Shown: positions 40,142-52,007 of the stretch, one piece after another
How positions within the stretch are numbered: the first letter of the stretch is position 1
Layout: every line of letters begins with the position of its first letter
DNA from: Betaproteobacteria bacterium
GTDB lineage: Bacteria; Pseudomonadota; Gammaproteobacteria; Burkholderiales; JAYUZG01
Assembly (NCBI GenBank): GCA_043751985.1
Contig: JAYUZG010000010.1
Coordinates: 1-56,314, forward strand
Reading direction: 5' to 3'
DNA length: 56,314 nt
Made by a program: the position numbers and the translations under genes
Notes under the pieces: generated by a model
Database searches by the model: none
What the model was told of the DNA's origin: nothing
What the model saw: the letters and a program-made list of their open reading frames with translations, nothing else

Positions 40142-40370
40142 CCGAGCTTACTAAGCGCATAATGTATATTATGTTAAATTAAAGTTGCGCTGCACGGCCC
40201 CAATCTGCCCCCCTCTCTTACACAATCCGCGTACGCCCCAGACGCAATGCCGATTTCTTCAAGCGCGCAGTCAGCATAGCGCAAACAAATTTTGCTCCGA
40301 GGTAATAGCAGCAAAATCACGTAGACTCGCGGCGCCGCTGCTTGAGCGCAAATTGAATCCGGGGAGCGTA

Positions 40371-41558
40371 ATGCGAATTCGCGAGTTGAGTAAGTTGTGG
40401 TCTCTGATCTGCGGTTTTGCCGCGATGTTGTTGATCGTCAATGAGGCGCAAGCAGATTCAAACGTAAAAATCGGCTGGCTCACCTCTCTTACCGGCGCGC
40501 TTTCCTCCGCTGCGATCGCGGAGAACCAGGGCGTTCAGTTGGCAGTCGAGGAAATCAACGTGAGCGGCGGCATCCTGGGCCGCAAGATCGAACTGGTCAC
40601 ACGCGACACCGCAGGCGATCCAACCAAAGCCGTCAACTTCGCGCAACAGGTGATTTTCAGCGAGAAGGTCGATGCGATCATCGGTCCGGTTAATTCCGGC
40701 GAAGGTCTGGCGGCCATTCCGATGATTGCACGCAGCGGCATCTTGAATATCGTAATCGGGGCGCTGGACGATCTGGTCAGCCCGGAGAAATTCCCGCGCG
40801 CGTTTCGCGTAATCAATACCAATACACAGTGGATCAACACCGCCAATAACTACGCAGTGAAGACGCTGAAAAAAACCAAAATTGCCTTGATCGGGGACAC
40901 TACCGGTTACGGAACCGCCAGCGCAAAGTCCGCTACGGAGATGCTGGAAAAGCTCGGCGTGAAACCGGTGTACAGCGTTCTGCTCGACCCAAACAAGATC
41001 GATCTTGCGGATGAAATAGCCAAGGCAAAAGCGGCAGGCGCCGACGTTCTCATGCCATGGTCTGCGGCTACGGGTTTGTTAGGTCGCCTGCTCAACGCGC
41101 GTGGCGACATGGGTTGGAAGGTGACGGTGGTCGGCCATCCCGCTCTGATGGCACCGCAAATACGCAAGCTGCTGAATAAACCCGAGTACTGGAATGACAC
41201 CTTTGCGGCCGGCTATTCAAGTACCACCTTCAATGCGGATGGCAAACTGCCACCGAGGACTCAAGCCTTGCTCGACAAGATCCGCCCGAAGCTCGGTGGC
41301 GGCGAAGTCGATGTCATGTTCTGGTGGGTGGCACTTGGCTACGACACAGTGAAGATTATTGAGCACGCGGCCAAGACGGCCGGTTCGTTTGACCAGGCGG
41401 CGATGCAAACAGCGCTCGAAAATACGCGCGAGTACCCAGGCGTCTATGGCACCTACTCCTGGTCCGCCCAACAACGCAATGGCTTTCCCGACATCGGCAT
41501 GACAATGAACGTGGCCAATACCTTCAAGGTCGGCGCGTTCAAAATCGCTCCGCGTTAA
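40371..41558 (+). CDS. ABC transporter periplasmic substrate-binding protein (Leu/Ile/Val-binding-like, Peripla_BP_6)
   Basis: Signal peptide 'LICGFAAMLLIVNEAQA', then 'KIGWLTSLTGALS', 'IIGPVNSG'. ATG at 40371 has GGGGAG upstream. Confidence 0.85.
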   Translation: MRIRELSKLWSLICGFAAMLLIVNEAQADSNVKIGWLTSLTGALSSAAIAENQGVQLAVEEINVSGGILGRKIELVTRDTAGDPTKAVNFAQQVIFSEKVDAIIGPVNSGEGLAAIPMIARSGILNIVIGALDDLVSPEKFPRAFRVINTNTQWINTANNYAVKTLKKTKIALIGDTTGYGTASAKSATEMLEKLGVKPVYSVLLDPNKIDLADEIAKAKAAGADVLMPWSAATGLLGRLLNARGDMGWKVTVVGHPALMAPQIRKLLNKPEYWNDTFAAGYSSTTFNADGKLPPRTQALLDKIRPKLGGGEVDVMFWWVALGYDTVKIIEHAAKTAGSFDQAAMQTALENTREYPGVYGTYSWSAQQRNGFPDIGMTMNVANTFKVGAFKIAPR

Positions 41559-41574
41559 CCGGCCGGCGGTCGAC

Positions 41575-42435
41575 GTGCTCACAGTCCTTATTTCCGGCCT
41601 GGCCGTGGGCGCCCTATTCGCATCGACTGCCCTCGTCTACAACGTCATGTACTCGACGTCTAAGGTGTTGTCGGTCACCACCGGACATATCGCCATGCTG
41701 GGTGGAATCACCGGGGCATGGGCCATCGCCGGCTTGCAAGTTCCCGTCTGGATAGGTCTCGCCTCAGCGATTGCCATAGGTGGCTTGTTCGGTTACCTGA
41801 CTGACGTCATCGCGATACGGCGAGTGGTGACGCGAAGCGATGAGCACCTGTGGTTGTTGAGTACGCTCGCGCTGGCAACCATTGTGCAGCAAGCCGTAGG
41901 TTTGTGGTGGGGAACCGAACCCAAACCTTTTCCGAGACTTTTCGCGCAAGATTTTTCCAGCGGAATTGCCGACCAGAAATTCTGGTTGCCGATGCTGGTG
42001 GCCGCGCTGATGGCTACGGGTTTGGAATTGTTCTATCGCAGAACAATGTTTGGCAAACTGTTTGTCGCTCTCTCGGAAGACGCGTTCGCTGCCCGCGCAC
42101 GCGGCGTGCACACCGATTGTATCCGCGCGGCGTCCTACGCGTTGGCGGGCGCGCTGGGCGGACTCGCGGGCTTTGCCGCCGGTCAGCTTACCTTTGCGTA
42201 TTTCGCGCTCGGACTTACCTTGACATTGAACGGCTTCATCGCGCTCGCGGTCGGAGGACTCGGCAGCAATCTTGGCGCGTTGATCGGCGGCGTTGCGCTG
42301 GGGCTGCTTAATTCCCTGTCCAGCTACTTCTTTGGCGGTGAGTATCAGCAGACTATTGCGGTAGGCCTGCTGATCCTTGTGTTGCTGTTGCGGCCCGAAG
42401 GCTTGTTCGGGTCGAGCAAAGTGCGGCCGGTATAA
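41575..42435 (+). CDS. Branched-chain-amino-acid-type ABC permease (LivH-like)
   Basis: Polytopic membrane protein. 'AFAARARGVHTD', 'GALGGLAG' and 'GGLGSNLGALIGG' are typical of the LivH family. Confidence 0.85.
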   Translation: MLTVLISGLAVGALFASTALVYNVMYSTSKVLSVTTGHIAMLGGITGAWAIAGLQVPVWIGLASAIAIGGLFGYLTDVIAIRRVVTRSDEHLWLLSTLALATIVQQAVGLWWGTEPKPFPRLFAQDFSSGIADQKFWLPMLVAALMATGLELFYRRTMFGKLFVALSEDAFAARARGVHTDCIRAASYALAGALGGLAGFAAGQLTFAYFALGLTLTLNGFIALAVGGLGSNLGALIGGVALGLLNSLSSYFFGGEYQQTIAVGLLILVLLLRPEGLFGSSKVRPV

Positions 42436-42437
42436 AC

Positions 42438-43442
42438 GTGACGGTAACCAAGCAAACGCTGGGCGCCCTCGCCTGCCTGATGGCATTCGCTGCGCTGCCG
42501 ATGTGGGCAAGCGACCAATACATGCTGCATCTCGGCACTTTGATTTGCGCTTACTGGATACTCATCGCCGGGCTCAATCTGGTGGTGGGATTCGGCGGGC
42601 AATTATCCATTGGTCATGTTGGACTGCTCGCAATCGGCGCATACGGGTTCGCTATCGTCGCAGGAAAATTTGGTGTTCATCCGTTTGCCGCGCTGCTTTT
42701 CTCCGGCGCGCTCGGCGCAGCGTGCGGCTTGCTTCTCGGGCTACCATCGCTACGCCTCCCCAGATTTTATTTCGCCATGGCCACCCTCGCGTTCTCGCTC
42801 ATTGTCGGCGAGTTGATCCTTGCACAGGGCAGTCTCACCGGCGGTGGCGTAGGGTTGCCGGTGCCGGCCTTCCCCGCGCCGTTCGATTCACCGCGCGGGT
42901 TTTATTGGCTGGTGCTGGTCATCGCGGCCGTGTGCACCTGGATGTTACGAAACATTGCGCACCGCATGTGGGGGCGCGCGTTGATCTCGATTCGCGACAA
43001 CCCGGTTGCAGCCGCCGCGGCCGGCGTGCCGGTGTTTCGCGCCAAACTGATCGCCTTTATTTTCAGTGGATTCACAGCGGGAATTGCCGGTGCCTTGTTT
43101 GGCTCGTTGCAAAGCTATATCACGCCCGATACGTTTCAGTTTGAATTGGGATTGTTTTTTTTCGTGTGCATCATCATCGGCGGACGCGGCAGCGTGTTCG
43201 GACCTCTCGCCGGGACCATCGTGCTCACGGCCTTGCCGGAACTTGCTTCCCCACTCGCCCGGCTCGGAACATTTTTCTATGGGCTGATGCTGTTGTTCGT
43301 CGTGCTGGTGGTGCCCGAGGGGATCGGCCGCGTGTTCGAAATTATGGTTGCACGCTGGCGGCCGCAAAAACGCGCCAGCACGCTGATCAATCCGGATCTA
43401 CCCAGCCTGACCCGCGCCATTGAGGCGAACGGCCGCCGATGA
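42438..43442 (+). CDS. Branched-chain-amino-acid-type ABC permease (LivM-like)
   Basis: 'GFGGQLSIGHVGLLAIGAY', 'IRDNPVAAAAAGV' and 'IIGGRGSVFGPLAG' are present. Confidence 0.85.
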   Translation: MTVTKQTLGALACLMAFAALPMWASDQYMLHLGTLICAYWILIAGLNLVVGFGGQLSIGHVGLLAIGAYGFAIVAGKFGVHPFAALLFSGALGAACGLLLGLPSLRLPRFYFAMATLAFSLIVGELILAQGSLTGGGVGLPVPAFPAPFDSPRGFYWLVLVIAAVCTWMLRNIAHRMWGRALISIRDNPVAAAAAGVPVFRAKLIAFIFSGFTAGIAGALFGSLQSYITPDTFQFELGLFFFVCIIIGGRGSVFGPLAGTIVLTALPELASPLARLGTFFYGLMLLFVVLVVPEGIGRVFEIMVARWRPQKRASTLINPDLPSLTRAIEANGRR

Positions 43443-44224
43443 GTAGACTCGCGCCTGCCGTCGCTGTTGATTACGAGCTAACCGCAGTCGCGGTCAGCAA
43501 ATCGTTTGACGGAATCCAGGCGTTAACTGATGTTTCCTTGAGTCTGCGTCCTGGCGAAGTGCACGGTCTTATCGGGCCAAACGGCAGTGGCAAGACCACG
43601 CTGTTAAATTTGCTGTCGGGTTATTACCGCCCAAGCGGCGGCGCGATTCTCTATCGCAATGAGAGTCTGGAGACTGCCACGGTTCAGCGCCGCGCCGACA
43701 TCGGCATCGCGCGTACCTTCCAGAAGCCACGTTTGCTCGGCTCGTTGTCGGTCCTCGACAACGCCATGCTCGGCGCATGGGGCGACACAGAATCGGGCTT
43801 TCTCGCTACGGCCCTGGCACTGCCTTCGGCGCGTCGCGAGGAGCACAAGATGCGCGAGCGCGCCAGTGAATTGCTGCACGCAATCGGGTTGGGGCGGGTG
43901 ATTGATCATCAAGCCAAGCTGCTCGAACACGCGGAGAAACGCTTTCTTGAAATCGCACGCGGCCTCGCCGCGCGACCGACTTTCATGCTGCTGGACGAAC
44001 CTGCCGGCGGTCTGACCGAAAACGAGATTGAGTTGCTCGGCAAAGTTATTACCACGCTAAAGAATTCCGGCATCGGCGTCTTACTGGTCGAGCATCACAC
44101 CGATTTCGTGTTTCGCATCAGTGACCGAGTGACTACACTGGATCTTGGCAAGATGATCAAGTACGGCACGCCGGAGGAAGTTCGGCGCGATGCGGAAGTG
44201 ATTCGCGTGTATCTCGGCGCATGA
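43439..44224 (+). CDS. ABC transporter ATP-binding protein (LivG-like)
   Basis: Walker A 'GPNGSGKTT', Walker B 'LLDEPAGGL' and C-terminal 'VIRVYLG'. ATGA overlap with the upstream gene. Confidence 0.9.
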   Translation: MSRLAPAVAVDYELTAVAVSKSFDGIQALTDVSLSLRPGEVHGLIGPNGSGKTTLLNLLSGYYRPSGGAILYRNESLETATVQRRADIGIARTFQKPRLLGSLSVLDNAMLGAWGDTESGFLATALALPSARREEHKMRERASELLHAIGLGRVIDHQAKLLEHAEKRFLEIARGLAARPTFMLLDEPAGGLTENEIELLGKVITTLKNSGIGVLLVEHHTDFVFRISDRVTTLDLGKMIKYGTPEEVRRDAEVIRVYLGA

Positions 44225-45006
44225 CCACGGAATCGGCAGAAAGCATCGTGGCGACGCGTCCTGACACGACTCTGCTCGCTGTGCGCGGATTAAACGTTGC
44301 CTACGGTACCGCGGCGGTGGTGCATGATGTTTCATTCGACGTACGGGCAGGAGAGTTTGTGGTGCTGCTCGGCCGCAATGGCGCGGGCAAGAGCAGCATC
44401 CTGCACGCGCTGTCCGGGTTGATCCCTAAGGTTTCCGGTGAAGTCTTTTTCGACGGCGTCGATTTCACGCACGCGAGCGCGCGCGCGATCGTGCGCGCCG
44501 GCGTGGTGCAAGTCCTCGAAGGGCATCGGGTGTTCGGCGCGCTCACGGTAGAAGACAACTTATTGATCGGGACCTATGCGCGCCATCCGCGCGGAGACCG
44601 TTCAGCATTGGTGCGCATATACGATTTCTTTCCCGAGTTGGCCGGGCGCCGAAATGAAATGGCGTCACGTCTGTCCGGCGGCCAGCAGCAGATTCTCGCC
44701 GTGGCGCAAGGCGTGATCGCGAGACCACGATTGCTGATTCTGGACGAACCCTCCGGCGGCCTCGCCCCATTAGTGATCGACCGCATTCTCGCGGTCGCGA
44801 CGGATCTGTGTCGCTCCGGCCTGGCGATTTTGCTGGTCGAGCAACTGGTCGAGAAAGCGCTGCGCTGCGCGCACTGGTGCTATCTGATTGAAACCGGCCG
44901 TGTGGTGGCGTCCGCGTCGTCGGCCGACATCCGCCATTCCGAGTTGCTGCATCGCGCGTATTTGGGCGGCGGCGTCCACGAACCATCTTCGAGAACCATG
45001 GCATGA
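44221..45006 (+). CDS. ABC transporter ATP-binding protein (LivF-like)
   Basis: Walker A 'GRNGAGKSS', signature 'LSGGQQQ' and Walker B 'LILDEPSGGL'. ATGA overlap with the upstream gene. Confidence 0.9.
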   Translation: MTTESAESIVATRPDTTLLAVRGLNVAYGTAAVVHDVSFDVRAGEFVVLLGRNGAGKSSILHALSGLIPKVSGEVFFDGVDFTHASARAIVRAGVVQVLEGHRVFGALTVEDNLLIGTYARHPRGDRSALVRIYDFFPELAGRRNEMASRLSGGQQQILAVAQGVIARPRLLILDEPSGGLAPLVIDRILAVATDLCRSGLAILLVEQLVEKALRCAHWCYLIETGRVVASASSADIRHSELLHRAYLGGGVHEPSSRTMA

Positions 45007-47117
45007 ATGAAAAATTGCGCGACGGCCTGCGTGCGGCTCTCTATCCTCGCTCGATTGCTTTGATCGGCGCCTCCGACAATCCGAACAAAATCGGCGGCCG
45101 CCCGCTCGCATTCTTGTCACGCTTTGGCTTTCGCGGATCGGTGTATCCGATCAATCCGACGCGTAACGAAGTGCAAGGTATGAAGACTTATTCCGGGCTG
45201 AGCGCGCTGCCCGAAGTTCCGGACATGGCAATCGTCGCGGTGGCCGGCGACATGGCCATGACCGCAGTTGAAGCGTGCGCTGTTGCGGGTGTAAAGGTCG
45301 CGCTCGTCATGGCGTCCGGCTTCGGCGAAACCGACGCAGCCGGTAAAGCCAAAGAGCAGCGCATGAAAGCTGTTGCCGCTGAGCACGGCATGCGCATCGT
45401 CGGTCCGAATTCACAAGGTCTGGCGAACTTTGGCAATGGCGCTGTCGCGAGCTTCTCGACCATGTTTGTCGAAACTCCGCCTGCGGTCGGTCCGGTTGGA
45501 ATCGTCAGCCAGAGCGGCGGCATGAGCGTCGTGCCGTATCACCTGCTGCGCGCGCGTGGCATCGGCGTGCGCCATGTTCACGCGACCGGCAATGATGCAG
45601 ACATTACCGTTTGCGAATTGGCGACACTGGTGGCGGAAGACCCTGAAGTACGCTTGCTCCTTCTATATCTCGAAGGCATTCCCGATCCGTGGAATTTGGC
45701 CGAAGTCGCACGCATCGCGCGCGAACGCAAGGTGCCGGTCATCGTGCTGAAGTCAGGCCGCACGGCGGCCGGCCGGGAGGCGGCACGGTCGCACACCGGC
45801 GCGCTCGCGAGCGAAGATCGCGTGGTTGACGCGTTTCTGGAACAACATGGAATCTGGCGCGCACAAACGGTCAACGAATTGGTCGATGCCGCTGATCTGT
45901 ATTTGAAAGGATGGAAACCACAAGGCCGCAATCTCGTCGCGGTAAGCAATTCCGGCGCAGTGTGTGTATTGAGCGCGGATGCCGCGACCGCCGCGGGCCT
46001 GCCCATGGCAAAGCTGAGCGATACCACGCGCGCGGAGCTCACGCGCATCCTGCCTGGATTCGCCACCACGACCAATCCAATTGATATCACCGCCGCGCTG
46101 CTCAGCAACAGCGGGCTGTTCAGCGAGATTCTGCCGGTGCTCGCGAAGGACTCCTCGGCCGATGCGTTTCTGATCGGCATTCCGGTTGCGGGCGCTGGCT
46201 ATGACGTCGAGCGTTTCGCCGTTGACTCAGCCGCGTTTGCCAAACAAACCGGCAAGCCGATCGTCGTCTCCGCGCCGCAACCCGTGGTGGCAGATCGTTT
46301 TCGCGCGCAGGGCCTGACCGTTTTTGCGACTGAGAGCGATGCGCTGCGCGCGCTGGCGCAATATCTTGGACACATGGAATTGATGGATCGTGTCGTCAAG
46401 CATCCACCGTCCGCGATTGATCGCGCGGCGGCGAGCGGCGAGTCGACCATGCTCAACGAAAGCGAAAGCCTGAAGCTGCTCGCACAGACCGGCGTGCCGG
46501 TCGTCGCACATCAACTATGTCATACGGCAGCGGAGGCGCTCACGGCATTCGAAGCGCTGGGAAGTTCGGTGGCGATGAAAGGCTGCACCGCCGAAGTCGC
46601 GCACAAAACCGAGTTAGGTCTGGTCAAGCTCGGTATTCGCGATCGTGCATCGGCCCAGAAAGCGTATGACCAAGTTCTTCTCGCCGCGCAAGCGGCTGCA
46701 ATCAAACTTGACGGAGTGATCGTCGCCGCAATGGAAGAGGGTCAGCGTGAGCTGATGATCGGCGCACGCCGTGATGCCTTGTTTGGACCGGTCATCCTGG
46801 TCGGCGACGGAGGCAAATACGTCGAGGCCATGCCCGACGCGCAAGTATTACTTGCGCCGTTTCACGCCGGCGACGTGATGCGCGCGCTGTCACGCTTACG
46901 CATCGCGCCCCTGCTCGCCGGCGTGCGCGGCGAGCCGCCGCTCGATATGGAAGCATTTTGTGACTGCGTGGCCGCGGTGGGACGACTGATGCTGGACGCA
47001 AACTGCAGCGTCAGCAATTTGGATTTGAATCCGGTGATGCTGAGGTCGCGCGGTCAGGGCTGCACTGCCGTGGACGCGGTTATTTTCCAACATGCGGCGA
47101 TTGCCGTAGTTGAGTGA
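45003..47117 (+). CDS. ADP-forming acyl-CoA synthetase (acetate--CoA ligase family; CoA-binding, succinyl-CoA-synthetase-like and ATP-grasp domains)
   Basis: 'PRSIALIGASDNPNKIGGRP', 'YPINP', 'GPNSQG', 'GIVSQSGG' and 'RSHTGALAS', plus a C-terminal ATP-grasp region. ATGA overlap with the LivF-like gene. Confidence 0.85.
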   Translation: MNEKLRDGLRAALYPRSIALIGASDNPNKIGGRPLAFLSRFGFRGSVYPINPTRNEVQGMKTYSGLSALPEVPDMAIVAVAGDMAMTAVEACAVAGVKVALVMASGFGETDAAGKAKEQRMKAVAAEHGMRIVGPNSQGLANFGNGAVASFSTMFVETPPAVGPVGIVSQSGGMSVVPYHLLRARGIGVRHVHATGNDADITVCELATLVAEDPEVRLLLLYLEGIPDPWNLAEVARIARERKVPVIVLKSGRTAAGREAARSHTGALASEDRVVDAFLEQHGIWRAQTVNELVDAADLYLKGWKPQGRNLVAVSNSGAVCVLSADAATAAGLPMAKLSDTTRAELTRILPGFATTTNPIDITAALLSNSGLFSEILPVLAKDSSADAFLIGIPVAGAGYDVERFAVDSAAFAKQTGKPIVVSAPQPVVADRFRAQGLTVFATESDALRALAQYLGHMELMDRVVKHPPSAIDRAAASGESTMLNESESLKLLAQTGVPVVAHQLCHTAAEALTAFEALGSSVAMKGCTAEVAHKTELGLVKLGIRDRASAQKAYDQVLLAAQAAAIKLDGVIVAAMEEGQRELMIGARRDALFGPVILVGDGGKYVEAMPDAQVLLAPFHAGDVMRALSRLRIAPLLAGVRGEPPLDMEAFCDCVAAVGRLMLDANCSVSNLDLNPVMLRSRGQGCTAVDAVIFQHAAIAVVE

Positions 47118-47122
47118 GGCTG

Positions 47123-47491
47123 TTACTCCTCACGCCGAAAGCGGATCAAATTCTTGTTTCCCAGTCTGAATACTTCGCTGTTTACGCGCTCGCCGATCTT
47201 CGCATCAATCGGACCGTGGCCCATCAATCGGCCGCCTTCCTCCAGATCGACCAGCACGATTCCATACGGCGTCAGCGCTTTGAACTCGTCAGACGGCGCG
47301 CGCGTGACCACGGTGGCGGCGAACACCGTGCCGCGCCCGCTCGATGTTTGCCAATCGAGCTGCGAGCTGCCACAGTGGGTGCAGGCATAACGCGCGAGCC
47401 GCTGTGCGCGGCCGCATTCACGGCAGCGTTGAAAGCGCAATTCGGATTGCTCCAATCCGCGCGTGAACTCTGACATCGAGGTCGCTGCCAT
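47123..47491 (-). CDS. DUF35 protein (Zn-ribbon plus OB-fold)
   Basis: Zn ribbon 'CRECGRAQRLARYACTHCGS' followed by OB-fold 'GTVFAATVV...YGIVLVDLEEGGRLMG'. Start 2 nt after the upstream stop, with GGGAG upstream. Confidence 0.8.
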   Translation of the reverse strand: MAATSMSEFTRGLEQSELRFQRCRECGRAQRLARYACTHCGSSQLDWQTSSGRGTVFAATVVTRAPSDEFKALTPYGIVLVDLEEGGRLMGHGPIDAKIGERVNSEVFRLGNKNLIRFRREE

Positions 47492-47493
47492 CC

Positions 47494-48642
47494 TTACTCC
47501 CTCGCTCTTTGTAGAATCAGGCTCACGTGTGCCGATAGCACGCCGCCGTCGGCGTGGATGAACGCGCAATGTCTGGGGGCGATCTGCCGCTCACCTGCTT
47601 GCCCCGTCATTTGGCGCCAGGCTTCGGCGATATGACTCATCCCGCCTGCCACACCCGAGTGGCCGAATGAGAGCAGTCCGCCGTGGGTATTGAGAGCTAA
47701 TTTTCCGTCGCGCGCAAACACACCTTGGCGCAATCGCTCGGCCGAGCCGCCGTAGGGCGCGAAACCGGTTTCTTCTAGCAAAATCGCCAAAGTGATGGTG
47801 AACGAATCGTAAATGCCCAAGTAGTCGATCGCCGAACGTTCGATACCCGCATCGGCGAAGGCGCGTGCAGCCGCGTCGCGTGCTCCGAAGTTACGTGTAT
47901 CCGAAACCGCCGACAAGTGCTGGTGCCGGTGCGCCTGACCGGCTCCCGCGACGCGTATCCCAGGGCTGGTGGTTGATGGCTCAGCCGACACCATCATCGC
48001 CACGGCACCATCGGACATCGGGCAGCAATCGAGTAGCTTCAACGGCGCCGCGATTGGCTTGGACTGCATCACTTCGTCGATGCTGACCGGCGTCTTGAAA
48101 TGCGCGTCCGGATGACGCGATGCGTTGTCGTGCATCAGCACCGCGAATTCCGCCAGGTCTCGCTCGGTGAGCCCACTCTCATGCATGTAGCGCGAGGCGA
48201 GCAAGGCGTAGTACGTAGGCACCATTACGCCATTAGGGATTTCGTACTCGGCATCTCCCACCTGGGCTAGGGTTTGAATCGCGTTGTCTCGCTGCTGTCC
48301 GCTGAGGCGATTTTCTCCCGCGACTACCAAAACATGCTTGCAACGTCCGCTCTTGATCAGCTCGGCGGCGAGCATGACCATACCGGCGCCGGTCGCGCCG
48401 CCCATCTGCACGCCGTGTGCATAACTCGGTTCGAGTGCGAAACGCTCGCAAAACAAAGTCGCCAGCATGAGATGCGGCATGGTCGTCGCATAGCCGCACA
48501 ACACACCATCGACGTCACGGCGTTGGATTCCTGCGCTCTCAATCGCGCGGTGCGCGGCGGCAGCCATCAGATCGAGCGCGCTCTGCCCTTCAAGGCGCCC
48601 GAACGGAGTAGAGCCGACTCCACTGATCCAAGCGGATTTCAT
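47494..48642 (-). CDS. Thiolase-superfamily protein, SCP-x/Ltp type; canonical catalytic cysteines not evident
   Basis: 'ISGVGSTPFGR', 'LKLLDCCPMSDGAVAMMV' and 'NTHGGLLSFGHSGVAGG' match SCP2-thiolase-like proteins. The nucleophile position reads 'MGGATGAG', and the HDCF-type motif reads 'YDSF'. Confidence 0.8.
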   Translation of the reverse strand: MKSAWISGVGSTPFGRLEGQSALDLMAAAAHRAIESAGIQRRDVDGVLCGYATTMPHLMLATLFCERFALEPSYAHGVQMGGATGAGMVMLAAELIKSGRCKHVLVVAGENRLSGQQRDNAIQTLAQVGDAEYEIPNGVMVPTYYALLASRYMHESGLTERDLAEFAVLMHDNASRHPDAHFKTPVSIDEVMQSKPIAAPLKLLDCCPMSDGAVAMMVSAEPSTTSPGIRVAGAGQAHRHQHLSAVSDTRNFGARDAAARAFADAGIERSAIDYLGIYDSFTITLAILLEETGFAPYGGSAERLRQGVFARDGKLALNTHGGLLSFGHSGVAGGMSHIAEAWRQMTGQAGERQIAPRHCAFIHADGGVLSAHVSLILQRARE

Positions 48643-48646
48643 TTGT

Positions 48647-49702
48647 TCAGACGGTTCCAACCGGCGTTGCCGGCGAACCCACCGCGCCCGGCAAACGCAG
48701 CGGCGGCGCAGTCAATAGAAAACGATAACGAGCATGCGCGCGCAGCCAATTGGCGAGCGGCGTCAGATGCCAGATCTCACCCAGGTTGACGCCGATCTTG
48801 AACAAACAATGTTCATGTAGCGGCAGCAACGCGCAACGCCCATGTCCCTCGCGCGCGGGATACGCTTCCACCGCGTAGTTATCCGCGATCAGTGACACCA
48901 GCTTGCTGTCGGTGACCCATTGCAACAATTTGTCATCACGGCCGTCCAACCCGGTACAGGAATTTTCCAGCGCATGCGCGTCCGGCTGCTTGTTCATTTC
49001 CAAAATCATTTCGGCGAAACCGGTATGCAAACACACCATGTCGCCGGCCTCGATTTCTACTTTGTCCTTTTCCAGGACGCGCATCAGATCGTCGTAACCA
49101 ATCGCCTTGGGTTCGCGTCCGAAGTGGGCGTGCAGATCGATCATGGCCGCCCTGCCCTGCATGCATTTTTCCGCCATGTTCTCGATGCCGAGCCGCTGCG
49201 CATCGGAAGTCGAACGCGGCTCGATCGGGCCGCTCGCACCTGCGTTTCCCGCTTCACTCGGTCCGTGAATATGCACCCCGGCGCGGAAGCCGTTGTAGAA
49301 CACCGCTTCGGCCACGCCATCGCCATCCGCGTCAAACATCTGCCCGACATGCGCGAGGCTGTCCCACTGTGTCGAATACTGAAGGTGAATCAACGCAAGG
49401 TCGTCATTCATCACGTCGGTCTTGTCCGGAAGGTCTTGCTCCACGCGGTAATTGAAATTCGGTTTCCCCGCACGCAGCGTCGGTCGCAGCACCGGCGGAA
49501 AGCGTCGCGGATTGAGCACATTGCCGCCGGGATAGTCGAGCGGAAGACTGAGACAGAAGGTCAGCCCTTCTCGCACTTCCGCCACGCCCTGACGCACTTT
49601 CTCCGGTGTCAGCAAATTGACACGGCCCAATTCGTCATCAGGTCCATAGTCGCCCCAAGTCGATCCTTTGGGTCGGTGTTTCCAACGTGACGAAGATGAC
49701 AT
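48647..49702 (-). CDS. Cyclase-family protein (PF04199-like, long form)
   Basis: 'GRVNLLTPEKV', 'IHLQYSTQWDSLAHVG' (variant of the HxGTHxDxPxH motif), 'VCLHTG' and 'SLIADNYAVE' are present. Confidence 0.65.
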   Translation of the reverse strand: MSSSSRWKHRPKGSTWGDYGPDDELGRVNLLTPEKVRQGVAEVREGLTFCLSLPLDYPGGNVLNPRRFPPVLRPTLRAGKPNFNYRVEQDLPDKTDVMNDDLALIHLQYSTQWDSLAHVGQMFDADGDGVAEAVFYNGFRAGVHIHGPSEAGNAGASGPIEPRSTSDAQRLGIENMAEKCMQGRAAMIDLHAHFGREPKAIGYDDLMRVLEKDKVEIEAGDMVCLHTGFAEMILEMNKQPDAHALENSCTGLDGRDDKLLQWVTDSKLVSLIADNYAVEAYPAREGHGRCALLPLHEHCLFKIGVNLGEIWHLTPLANWLRAHARYRFLLTAPPLRLPGAVGSPATPVGTV

Positions 49703-49739: not shown

Positions 49740-50729
49740 CTAACGAATGAAATCCAGCACGCGTTGCGATTCTGTTGCCAGTAACTCGGCGCCAATTCTA
49801 TGGTTCCAGTACGCCTCCGAACCCGCGCACAATCGCCACTCGTGCAAGCGCCGCGTGAATAACTGCAAGTCGAACTCCTCAGTCACTCCGATCGCGCCGT
49901 GAACTGCGTGCCCCATCGCGCAGATAGAAGCGGCCACCTCGCTGGTCACCGCTTTTGCGATCGACGCTTTGCGCGTGTCCGGCAGAAAACCATTCGCATC
50001 ACTACCGATGCGCGCCGCGCTGTGCGCGAGTGCGGTCTGCTCCGCCATCACCGCAATCTGATGTTGAATCGCCTGAAACTTTCCGATGGCGCGGCCAAAC
50101 TGAGAGCGTTCATTGGCGTAAGTCAAGGTCATGCGCAACACGCTGGCCATAGCGCCGGACATTTGCGCGGCGAGCAGACAGGCTTGCACGACGCGCAACT
50201 CGCTCAGGCACGCAATAGTCTCTTGCTTCGCCGATCCAAGAGACCAAGTCAATAACGCACTCGACGCAAAGGATGCAACGGGATCGCGACGTGCCTCTGC
50301 CAACGGAAGCAAGATGGCTTTATTTCTCACACCCACCAACGCCCAGTGCGCGGTCATCGCTTGCGCAGTCTGTCCGCAACGAATGGATCCGTCCGAAGGA
50401 TCAATCTTGCCGTGCGCCAAAACTATCGCTTCATGCGGAATGCTTTCACCCGCGGCGTGCAAGATCGCCCTCGCGAGCATCGTTTGCGCGAACGGCAGCG
50501 GCAACGCGTATATGCCGCTGAGTTCAATGAGCGGAAACACGTCGCGCAACGCCAACCCTGCCCCGCCGGCATGTACCGGTAACAGCGCGTCGAGAAAACC
50601 CGATTCCTCCAGTTGGCGCCACACAACATTGGTCGCGCCGCCCTGATCGATGGTGCGCACTTGGGCCGGTGCGCTGCACGCGCGCAATAAGCGCTCGAAA
50701 GGATCGACCAGAGAATTCTCCACGCTCAT
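49740..50729 (-). CDS. Acyl-CoA dehydrogenase-like protein, short form (candidate beta subunit)
   Basis: The C-terminal ACAD helical domain is clear ('YANERSQFGRAIGKFQAIQHQIA', 'HGAIGVTEEFDL'). The N-terminal and middle domains are short and divergent. The start overlaps the upstream ACAD stop (TGATG). Confidence 0.75.
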   Translation of the reverse strand: MSVENSLVDPFERLLRACSAPAQVRTIDQGGATNVVWRQLEESGFLDALLPVHAGGAGLALRDVFPLIELSGIYALPLPFAQTMLARAILHAAGESIPHEAIVLAHGKIDPSDGSIRCGQTAQAMTAHWALVGVRNKAILLPLAEARRDPVASFASSALLTWSLGSAKQETIACLSELRVVQACLLAAQMSGAMASVLRMTLTYANERSQFGRAIGKFQAIQHQIAVMAEQTALAHSAARIGSDANGFLPDTRKASIAKAVTSEVAASICAMGHAVHGAIGVTEEFDLQLFTRRLHEWRLCAGSEAYWNHRIGAELLATESQRVLDFIR

Positions 50730-51883
50730 CAGCGCAACCCCAAGCCACGCGCGATCATCCCGCGCAAAATTTCGCGTGTTCCGCCACGCAACGAAAATGT
50801 CGGTGCGATCTGCGACACATAGGACAGCGCGCGCGACAACTCCGCGCTCGTGTCGCCATCGGGATCGGCGCCGAGCGAGCCGGCGATCATCACCGGGATC
50901 GCTTGTTCCAGTTCGGTACCGAGTTCCTTCACCAGCGCGGCTTCGACCACCGGACTTTCACCGCACGCAATTCTTGCGGTGAGAGAAATCGACATTTCGC
51001 GTAACACGGCGAGGCGCGACACGATCTTTCCGGCCAACTCCTGCGCGCGCGGCTGGGCGGCCGGTCGTCGACGCAGCAGTTCGATCCACTCGTCGAGCAA
51101 CACGGCGTCCGAGTACAGTCGTTCCGGCCCGCTGCGCTCATACGCGAGTTCCGTGGTGACTTGGCTCCAGCCATCGCCTTCCTTGCCGATCAGTGGGTCG
51201 GAAGTAAGTTGCACGTCCTGGAAAAAAACTTCATTGAAGTGACGATCACCGGTAAGGTCTTGAATCGGCCGCACGGTTACGCCAGGGAGCGAGAGATCGA
51301 CGATGAACTGAGACAAGCCCGCATGTCGATCCTCACTTGTGCCGGACGTGCGAACCAAAGCAATCATGTAGTGTGAGCACTGTGCATTGGTGGTCCAGAT
51401 TTTCTGTCCGTTCAGCCGCCATCCATCCGTAGTCTTCTCCGCTCGCGTGCGGACGCTGGCGAGATCGGAACCGGAATTGGGTTCGCTCATGCCGATGCAA
51501 AAGAAAGCCTCGGCCCGGCAGATCAAAGGCAAGTAAAACTGCCGCTGTCGCTCCGTGCCGTATTTCAGAATCAGCGGCGCGCTCTGACGATCGGCGATCC
51601 AGTGCGCACCGACCGGCGCGCCCGCGTTGAGAAACTCTTCGACCATCACAAAGCGGGCGAACGCGCTGCGGCCGGCGCCGCCATACTGCTGCGGCAGCGT
51701 CAGACCGATCCAGCCGTTCTTTGCGAGTGCCCGGCTAAACTCCGGGTCGGAGCGCGACCACGAGCGCGCAAGTTGATCCACCGCAACGCCGCGCAGTGCG
51801 TCCGCGAGAAACGTACGCACCGCTTGGCGCAACGCTTCGTCTTCGGGCGGGATGATTGCGGCTTCAAATGAATCGAGAATCAT
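50729..51883 (-). CDS. Acyl-CoA dehydrogenase (candidate alpha subunit)
   Basis: 'CIGMSEPNSGSDLASVRT', 'WRLNGQKIWTTNA' and 'YERSGPERLY', with C-terminal 'RGGTREILRGMIARGLGL'. Start set at the internal ATG (MILDSFEA). Confidence 0.88.
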   Translation of the reverse strand: MILDSFEAAIIPPEDEALRQAVRTFLADALRGVAVDQLARSWSRSDPEFSRALAKNGWIGLTLPQQYGGAGRSAFARFVMVEEFLNAGAPVGAHWIADRQSAPLILKYGTERQRQFYLPLICRAEAFFCIGMSEPNSGSDLASVRTRAEKTTDGWRLNGQKIWTTNAQCSHYMIALVRTSGTSEDRHAGLSQFIVDLSLPGVTVRPIQDLTGDRHFNEVFFQDVQLTSDPLIGKEGDGWSQVTTELAYERSGPERLYSDAVLLDEWIELLRRRPAAQPRAQELAGKIVSRLAVLREMSISLTARIACGESPVVEAALVKELGTELEQAIPVMIAGSLGADPDGDTSAELSRALSYVSQIAPTFSLRGGTREILRGMIARGLGLR

Positions 51884-52007
51884 TGGTCGTGAACGGCTGG
51901 TGTGGAATTCGGAGCGTACCAGAGCGGAGGCCACGCGACGCACAAAAACTCATCTAAGATCGCTGTGTCGTCGCCAACAATTTTTAGAAAAAATCAAGGA
52001 GTCCATT

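Follow-up and report, generated by a model that had tools for sequence, protein, structure and literature searches.

Gene organization

We analyzed a stretch of 56,314 nucleotides of contig JAYUZG010000010.1 from a Betaproteobacteria bacterium (assembly GCA_043751985.1), referred to here as the window, whose minus strand carries an operon encoding, in order, a large acyl-CoA dehydrogenase (ACAD), a small ACAD, a cyclase-family protein, a thiolase-like protein and a DUF35 protein. The subject of this work is the thiolase-like protein, which lacks the catalytic cysteines of thiolases and is most likely a thiolase-fold acyl-CoA carbon-carbon lyase incapable of thiolysis. It and the gene that follows it are laid out as follows:

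47494-48642, minus strand: Cys-less thiolase-fold protein of the SCP2/archaeal type (Pfam Thiolase_C_1 4.4e-48, Thiolase_N 1.9e-15)
47123-47491, minus strand: stand-alone DUF35 protein of 122 aa, the presumed partner subunit, with its ATG at 47491 (Pfam zf-ChsH2 6e-10, OB_ChsH2_C 9e-14)

The thiolase-like gene reads from an ATG at 48642 to a TAA at 47496-47494 and encodes 382 aa (P0001). The alternative TTG start upstream, at 48660, would run into the preceding gene, and since homologues also align from residues 1-4, the ATG at 48642 is the likely start. A plus-strand reading of 47494-48642 contains many stop codons and was rejected. All NCBIfam models scored below their cut-offs for this protein: the top match, PRK06158, gave 275 bits where 421 were required, and the lipid-transfer models reached 136-185 bits against cut-offs of 424-469.

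As the initial annotation of this DNA had stated, the DUF35 gene begins 2 nt past the stop codon of the thiolase-like gene; it is preceded by a GAGGGAG ribosome-binding site. Its product combines a Cys4 zinc ribbon (C23, C26, C37, C40; 47372-47425) with an OB fold, and its closest solved relative is the CtShy DUF35 of the Sal complex (9myr_B, 8.5e-11), with archaeal 6esq_E and ChsH2 (6ok1_B) also among the best matches. The assembly (2.47 Mb, 82% complete) contains one DUF35 locus, and a DUF35 gene lies directly downstream of the thiolase-like gene in 56 of 59 orthologous loci. From this genetic coupling we infer that the two proteins form a heteromeric complex.

Loss of the catalytic cysteines

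The catalytic positions come out alike in three kinds of alignment: pairwise ones made with HMMER against solved structures, one built with MAFFT that includes 108 cluster representatives, and alignments to five solved proteins. Conservation was scored in 60 orthologues (52-100% identity) from Burkholderiales, Herbiconiux, Sphingobium and Pseudomonas. The segments concerned are:

48388-48408, minus strand: Q79-M-G-G-A-T-G85 turn, the site of the nucleophilic Cys in thiolases, occupied here by Gly82 (codon 48399-48397); aligned to EAACASG of 7yvy and 6esq
47800-47811, minus strand: Y278-D-S280-F at the site of the HDCF acid/base motif; aligned to 7yvy and 6esq, 60/60 orthologues
47653-47691, minus strand: N318-THGG...G-H328-S-G loop, with the thiolase GHP histidine retained; HMMER alignments to 6ok1 and 9myr plus multiple sequence alignment
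48007-48030, minus strand: D205-C-C-P-M-S-D-G212, a fold-level motif; LLDCC also in TcLtp2 and 4u4e, MHCSP in thiolase 6esq

The VHDCF and VHDAF motifs of 7yvy and 6esq align with IYDSF, so that the His is replaced by Tyr278 and the Cys by Ser280. The initial annotation had described a thiolase fold without catalytic cysteines, in which the HDCF motif reads IYDSF, and both statements are borne out: Gly82 and Ser280 fall on the catalytic columns, and the motif matches the VHDCF column in the HMMER and MAFFT alignments alike. Every string that it quoted is present, namely VQMGGATGAG at residue 78, GRCKH at 99, LLDCCPMSDGA at 203, IYDSF at 277, NTHGGLLSFGHSGVAGG at 318 and RHCAF at 357. The position of the cysteine in the classical thiolase CxG (CxGGG) motif we take to be Ala364. 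Judged as a thiolytic thiolase, then, the protein has the fold and the GHP histidine but neither the nucleophilic Cys, expected in a C-x-S-G turn at the N-terminus of helix N-alpha-3, nor the acid/base Cys.

These substitutions are fixed. G81, G82, Y278, D279, S280, F281, N318 and H328 are invariant across the 60 orthologues, and Gly82, Tyr278 and Ser280 are also invariant in 120 close homologues. Conservation of Gly81-Gly82, YDSF and His328 in 60/60 sequences shows that the loss of the cysteines was selected and does not reflect chance, sequencing error or decay; the loss is ancient as well.

A non-catalytic role, as a pseudo-enzyme or a scaffold like the inert thiolase-fold subunit of PhlABC/MucABC, would agree with the disappearance of all canonical catalytic cysteines, and thiolase-fold scaffolds do occur in DUF35-containing complexes (5m3k and 9vbo were among the matches). 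However, the operon has no second thiolase-fold gene, the DUF35 locus is the only one in the genome, the Cys-less relatives TcLtp2 and CtSal are active, and the residues Y278, N318, H320, H328, G366 and G367, whose counterparts in relatives face the active site, show no variation. We regard an inert protein as improbable.

The initial annotation had also named cysteines that might take over a catalytic column, those of GRCKH, LLDCC and RHCAF, but none of them aligns there. A thiolase with a relocated Cys (C206/C207, C101 or C49) could draw on the conservation of C206 (60/60) and C207 (59/60), and on the automatic naming of homologues as 'acetyl-CoA acetyltransferase'. Against it, LLDCC is present in the aldolase TcLtp2 and C206 in the thiolase 6esq, which uses another Cys, so C206 and C207 are fold features; C101 (of GRCKH) is kept in 48/60 orthologues and C49 in 55/60, and C359 (of RHCAF) is variable. 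Rescue of thiolase chemistry by the cysteines of the three motifs is ruled out by alignment and conservation, and we consider a relocated nucleophile very improbable, as we do true Ltp2 or Sal orthology (see below).

A histidine cluster, A-H238-R-H240-Q-H242 (47917-47931, minus strand), follows the first strand of the C-terminal half. The three histidines are present in 57, 59 and 60 of the 60 orthologues, respectively; H238 and H240 are common to 4u4e and absent from thiolases, Sal and Ltp2. All three are candidate catalytic or substrate-binding residues.

Residues shared with proven aldolases

Two Cys-less thiolase-fold proteins are proven aldolases, and in both the Tyr of the YDxF motif is the catalytic base (PMC12329534). 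TcLtp2 has a YDHF motif, with Tyr294 as base and Tyr344 as acid, and CtSal has a YDCY motif, with Tyr302 as base and Cys304 as acid; in CtSal, which has a Gly at the nucleophile position, Gln347 and Gln352 support the Cys, and the C304A, C304S and C304H variants are all inactive (PMC12329534). Residue equivalences were obtained by counting along HMMER alignments, after correction for the 24 residues by which a tag shifts the numbering of 9myr. Tyr278 corresponds to TcLtp2 Tyr294 and CtSal Tyr302; Ser280 to TcLtp2 His296 and CtSal Cys304; and His328 to TcLtp2 Tyr344 and CtSal Gln352. CtSal Gln347, Gln161, Tyr165 and Gly391 correspond to Leu323, Pro142, Tyr145 and Gly367, respectively. By these alignments the protein appears to retain the proven aldolase base while both known acids are missing. 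Since CtSal C304S, in which the Cys is replaced by the residue found at position 280 here, is inactive, a different acid must be assumed.

Of the relatives whose third motif residue is not Cys, 40/53 have a His in the His328 column, versus 18/35 of those in which it is Cys (Fisher p=0.02, phylogeny uncorrected). Covariation of a non-Cys third residue with retention of His328 may thus exist, but as a weak trend only.

Phylogenetic placement and prevalence

A quick maximum-likelihood tree was built from 113 rows (LG+G4; Shimodaira-Hasegawa-like approximate likelihood ratio test (SH-aLRT) support only; PDB rows entered from HMMER alignments). The query clade consists of five rows (SH-aLRT 99) and is nested in a 107-row radiation with Gly at the nucleophile position and Tyr in the second motif (99). 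The same radiation holds, as separate branches, a Sal clade (six rows, 100), a TcLtp2 clade (97) and a 4u4e clade (99), and true thiolases fall outside it. The third residue of the motif shifts repeatedly on the tree, with at least seven changes for YDSF. HMMER scores of the query were 181 bits to 4u4e, 162 to CtSal, 153 and 135 to archaeal thiolases and 122 to TcLtp2 (6ok1).

With Gly at the nucleophile position, a motif that starts with Tyr-Asp and this position in the tree, the protein has the marks of the Gly/Tyr-Asp lyase radiation. It did not place in the Ltp2 or the Sal clade of the 113-row tree; by sequence it shares a radiation with both families and is a member of neither. Retro-aldol cleavage is the best-supported chemistry because TcLtp2 and CtSal are the only biochemically proven members of the radiation. 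The term 'Ltp2-like retro-aldolase', used in the initial annotation, is apt insofar as the protein belongs with these two aldolases, but it overstates the likeness, since the clade is separate, the acids of both enzymes are absent and steroid genes are lacking. The separate clade weighs against a true Ltp2/Sal orthologue acting on steroid side chains, and so does the gene content: the window has no MaoC-DUF35 fusion or other steroid genes, and the small assembly has a single DUF35.

Scanning 1.84 billion cluster representatives in full with HMMER yielded 7741 hits, of which the best 108 full-length ones were examined. In these, the nucleophile column shows Gly 99 times, Ser four times, Ala three times and Pro and Cys once each, and the second motif is YDCF in 30, YDSF in 19 and YDAF in 15, followed by YDPF and others. 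A Cys-less nucleophile site is thus common among relatives, and a feature much less unusual than first implied. Homologues carry the database names 'acetyl-CoA acetyltransferase' or 'thiolase family protein', yet such proteins cannot be thiolases because they have no nucleophile. This exposes a widespread mis-annotation: the nearest ~100 sequence clusters share the Cys loss, and pathway reconstructions that score them as thiolases are wrong.

Predicted structure

The AlphaFold2 (AF2) model of the protein has a mean predicted local distance difference test (pLDDT) score of 82.7 and a predicted template modelling score (pTM) of 0.88. In Foldseek comparisons it matched 6et9, 4u4e, 7yvy, 9myr, 5ab7 and 6ok1 with template modelling (TM) scores of 0.81-0.90. 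Fold comparison does not separate thiolase from aldolase here, because all DUF35-type thiolase-fold structures score between 0.8 and 0.9. Residues 124-139 and 324-330 have pLDDT values below 50; the former match a loop of CtSal that is reported to be flexible or disordered (PMC12329534).

Gene neighborhood in the window

Upstream of the thiolase-like gene, and converging on the DUF35 gene from the other side, lie the following genes:

49740-51943, minus strand: ACAD pair at the head of the operon, large subunit 50729-51943 and small subunit 49740-50729, overlapping at 50729 (Pfam and NCBIfam)
48647-49702, minus strand: cyclase-family (PF04199) protein of 351 aa (Pfam 2.3e-9), its stop 4 nt before the thiolase-like ATG
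45003-47117, plus strand: ADP-forming acyl-CoA synthetase of 704 aa (Pfam CoA_binding_2, Succ_CoA_lig, ATP-grasp_5)
40185-45006, plus strand: Liv-type ABC importer (binding protein, two permeases, two ATPases; Pfam), running into the synthetase gene

The large ACAD is PimC-like and the small one IpdE2/PimD-like, all matches being below the curated NCBIfam cut-offs; the small protein (329 aa) matches the C-terminal ACAD domain only. Their sequences suggest a heteromeric alpha/beta ACAD. The operon order (ACAD pair, X, thiolase-like, DUF35) parallels that of ChsE1E2-ChsH1H2-Ltp2. In the cyclase-family protein, QYSTQWDSLAH stands where the HxGTHxDxPxH metal motif is expected, and its sole solved relative, the uncharacterized 5ibz, has the same Gln-for-His changes, LQGSTQWDALSH.

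The stop codons of the synthetase (47117) and DUF35 (47123) genes converge across a 5-nt gap, and since this gap has no room for terminators, the two transcripts probably overlap. No steroid genes and no MaoC-DUF35 fusion were found in the window, whose content comprises fab genes, housekeeping genes, the ABC importer and SoxCD. Elsewhere the assembly encodes five canonical thiolases, ten crotonases and, on another contig, one MaoC protein, and the operon itself has no MaoC gene. With five canonical thiolases available in the genome, the gene studied here is not needed for thiolysis.

Orthologous loci

Neighbors in the 59 orthologous loci were labeled by BLAST against proteins of known Pfam content. 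Besides DUF35, they include the ADP-forming synthetase (42 of 59 loci), a TctC-type binding protein (37), IclR (33), AtuA (19), AtuA_fd (18), cyclase-like (18), SDR (18) and ACAD (14) proteins, MaoC hydratases (10), LvaA-like kinases (LvaA/C/D-like; 8), aldehyde dehydrogenases (8) and crotonases (6). When counting is limited to the 34 loci flanked by 5 kb or more on each side, 32 have DUF35 and 30 have the synthetase. These gene contents indicate a conserved core of binding protein, ADP-forming CoA ligase, thiolase-like/DUF35 pair and IclR, which would constitute a catabolic module for small acids and not for steroids; the steroid side-chain genes ChsH1/ChsH2 are not among the conserved neighbors. 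Cultured bacteria with the module include Diaphorobacter nitroreducens DSM 15985, Comamonas avium, Variovorax boronicumulans and Acidovorax sp. MaoC, crotonase, ACAD and LvaA/C/D-like families all make enoyl- or 3-hydroxyacyl-CoA, and the variable accessory enzymes fit an aldolase. Cyclase-like and MaoC/crotonase genes co-occur in none of the 59 loci (Fisher p=0.011, phylogeny uncorrected), which is compatible with a cyclase-like protein standing in for the hydratase. Its location, with the ACAD pair on one side and the thiolase-like gene on the other, points the same way.

Several loci have distinctive contents. In eight (L013, L016, L021, L024, L035, L043, L058, L063) the module adjoins SDR, ACAD and APH-kinase genes, a set similar to LvaA-D, the genes for levulinate/4-hydroxyvalerate in Pseudomonas putida, which yield 3-hydroxyacyl-CoA; in L001 and L005 a DUF6285 gene adjoins the APH gene. 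In 18-19 of the 59 loci, L008, L010, L012, L014, L022, L039-L041, L044, L048 and L052 among them, genes for AtuA (PF07287) and a small ferredoxin-like partner protein (PF23544) lie directly upstream of the unit formed by the TctC, thiolase-like and DUF35 genes, and the cyclase-like gene often accompanies them. L049 carries a second thiolase-fold gene, divergent, beside the orthologue, together with homologues of the large and small ACADs, a MaoC hydratase and an SDR, and is the closest context match to the ACAD pair in the window. Literature searches on the module (DUF35 with AtuA, ADP-forming ligase or TctC; DUF1446/AtuA; transposon sequencing with random barcodes (RB-TnSeq)), partly blurred by look-alike words, returned nothing relevant.

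The composition of the module also bears on two other readings of the protein. The first is an acyl-CoA decarboxylase: an imported dicarboxylate (malonate-type or a beta-carboxy acid) would be ligated to CoA and then decarboxylated, with His328 and Tyr278 forming an oxyanion hole as in ketosynthase-like decarboxylases. The minimal module of binding protein, CoA ligase and thiolase-like/DUF35 pair (plus IclR), with no dehydrogenase or hydratase nearby in 15/34 loci, would fit this reading, and MatB/MatA follows the same ligase-decarboxylase logic. TctC-family proteins, found in 37/59 loci, often bind di- or tricarboxylates. However, physiological decarboxylases are not known among thiolase-fold/DUF35 pairs, the Tyr that never varies here is what the aldolases have been proven to use as base, and the operon in the window is headed by an ACAD pair, which points to beta-carbon chemistry. 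The Cys-less relative TbSLP, a YDCF protein proposed to be an aldolase, was crystallized with malonyl-CoA and weakly decarboxylates it, but with a kcat of 0.005 per s, which is very low, and CtSal has no malonyl-CoA decarboxylase activity at all (PMC12329534). Decarboxylation is, on this evidence, unlikely.

The second is some other acyl-CoA chemistry, such as hydrolytic retro-Claisen cleavage of a 3-ketoacyl-CoA, isomerization or condensation, with the cyclase-like and AtuA proteins as the real partners. The frequency of SDR (18/59), cyclase-like and AtuA/AtuA_fd genes (18-19/59) would favor it, and the active-site set of YDSF, His328, His238/His240/His242 and the invariant His363 and Asp365 matches no characterized enzyme. 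Such a reaction would nevertheless be without precedent in the thiolase superfamily, and with its chemistry unspecified it is hard to support; we think it doubtful, if somewhat plausible.

Proposed function

Our preferred reading is that the protein is a DUF35-partnered, non-steroid thiolase-fold retro-aldolase acting on a 3-hydroxyacyl-CoA, with Tyr278 as the base and His328 as the likely acid. Its chemistry, residue roles and order of steps are what we infer from the comparisons above, and we would put the chances of its being right at about even. A carboxylic acid would be imported by the Liv-type ABC system and converted to its CoA ester by the ADP-forming synthetase encoded by the convergent gene. 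In this genome the heteromeric ACAD would then desaturate the ester, and hydration, possibly by the cyclase-like protein, would give the 3-hydroxyacyl-CoA. The thiolase-like/DUF35 complex would cleave the latter by a retro-aldol reaction to acetyl-CoA (or propionyl-CoA) and an aldehyde or ketone. In the active site, Tyr278 (equivalent to TcLtp2 Tyr294 and CtSal Tyr302) would deprotonate the beta-hydroxyl, the oxygens would be held by the Gly82 backbone and the G366-G367 loop, and the enolate would be protonated by His328 (or His238/His240) and not by Ser280. The assignment of His328 as proton donor is weak.

Several observations weigh against this proposal. The assayed members of the Gly/Tyr radiation, TcLtp2 and CtSal, lie outside both the query clade and the 4u4e clade, and the CtSal C304S variant, with the same Ser as Ser280, is inactive. 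The loop that carries His328 (324-330) is modeled with low confidence. As for gene context, 15 of the 34 fully flanked loci are without a nearby hydratase, ACAD or SDR, and an aldehyde dehydrogenase is near in only 8/59 loci and so is not a constant neighbor. The most constant partner is the CoA ligase, which fits the logic of ligase plus decarboxylase equally well.

Going further, we tentatively suggest, as a possibility more probably wrong than right, that the clade may stand for a third catalytic strategy among thiolase-fold aldolases, with a Tyr base, the retained thiolase His as acid and a Ser where Sal needs a Cys. Its setting would be a widespread, compact module outside steroid metabolism, made up of a carboxylate-binding protein, an ADP-forming CoA ligase, the aldolase/DUF35 pair and IclR, in which a cyclase-family protein with a degenerate metal site would replace MaoC or crotonase in some genomes, including this one. 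If this is true, thiolase-derived aldolases would not be confined to steroid side chains but would also serve the ordinary catabolism of small acids, in Burkholderiales and beyond. For enzymology, the two Cys-less members with known chemistry both serve steroid catabolism and use different acids; a clade with neither acid could reveal the flexibility of the active site. The close association with an ADP-forming CoA ligase and with carboxylate-binding proteins, in turn, marks a widespread catabolic module.

Comparison with known systems

The nearest characterized enzyme by sequence is the bile-acid C5 side-chain aldolase CtSal-CtShy(DUF35) (9myr, 162 bits; PMC12329534). The two proteins share the Gly nucleophile site, the Tyr base, the NTHGG...SFG.SG..GGMS loop and the G-G oxyanion loop. 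They differ in that the essential Cys304 is Ser280 here, Gln347 and Gln352 are Leu323 and His328, and Gln161 is Pro142, and CtSal belongs to the separate Sal clade. The DUF35 domain of CtShy is joined to a hydratase and its zinc finger is of the Cys3His type, whereas the protein in the window is Cys4 and stands alone.

The steroid C3 side-chain aldolase TcLtp2-ChsH2(DUF35) (6ok1) likewise has the thiolase fold, the Gly nucleophile site, the Tyr of YDxF, NTHGG, LLDCC and a DUF35 partner. Its similarity is lower (122 bits), however, and it falls in another clade, with YDHF in place of YDSF and Tyr344 in place of His328. Its DUF35 is fused to the MaoC hydratase ChsH2, while the one described here is stand-alone and in no steroid gene context.

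The top solved match, the putative thiolase 4u4e from Sphaerobacter thermophilus (181 bits), has the GG, IYDSF and LLDCC motifs, the retained His and equivalents of H238 and H240, but it is ~34% identical and belongs to a different, well-supported clade. We found no functional data on 4u4e, and no function was transferred from it. The SCP2-thiolase-like protein TbSLP (5ab4-5ab7) resembles ours in its Cys-less nucleophile position, its YDxF motif and its fold (TM about 0.85); it is eukaryotic, its YDCF keeps the Cys, and the paper on Sal reports no DUF35 partner for it.

True thiolases with DUF35 partners, namely the archaeal acetoacetyl-CoA thiolase/HMGCS/DUF35 complex (6esq/6et9), the Pyrococcus protein (7yvy) and the benzoylsuccinyl-CoA thiolase BbsAB (7pxp), share the fold subtype (TM up to 0.90), DUF35 and the GHP His. 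Unlike the protein studied here, they have both the nucleophilic Cys of EAACASG and the HDCF/HDAF His, and their reactions are thiolysis or Claisen condensation.

A further parallel comes from ibuprofen degraders, in which, according to Murdoch and Hay, IpfD is reportedly SCPx-thiolase-like and IpfE a DUF35 protein. The ipfDE product is described as a retro-aldolase that releases propionyl-CoA (PMC9195938). By description only, it is like our protein in being thiolase-like and in serving a non-steroid CoA-ester pathway, but its substrate is a dioxygenase-made ring dihydrodiol, and genes of that kind are absent here.

Cys-less thiolase-fold aldolases with DUF35 are therefore already known, in Ltp2, Sal and, genetically, IpfDE. 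What appears to be new here, judging from sequence and gene order, is a distinct clade, a YDSF/His set unlike that of any characterized enzyme, a stand-alone DUF35 protein and a conserved, non-steroid module built around an ADP-forming ligase.

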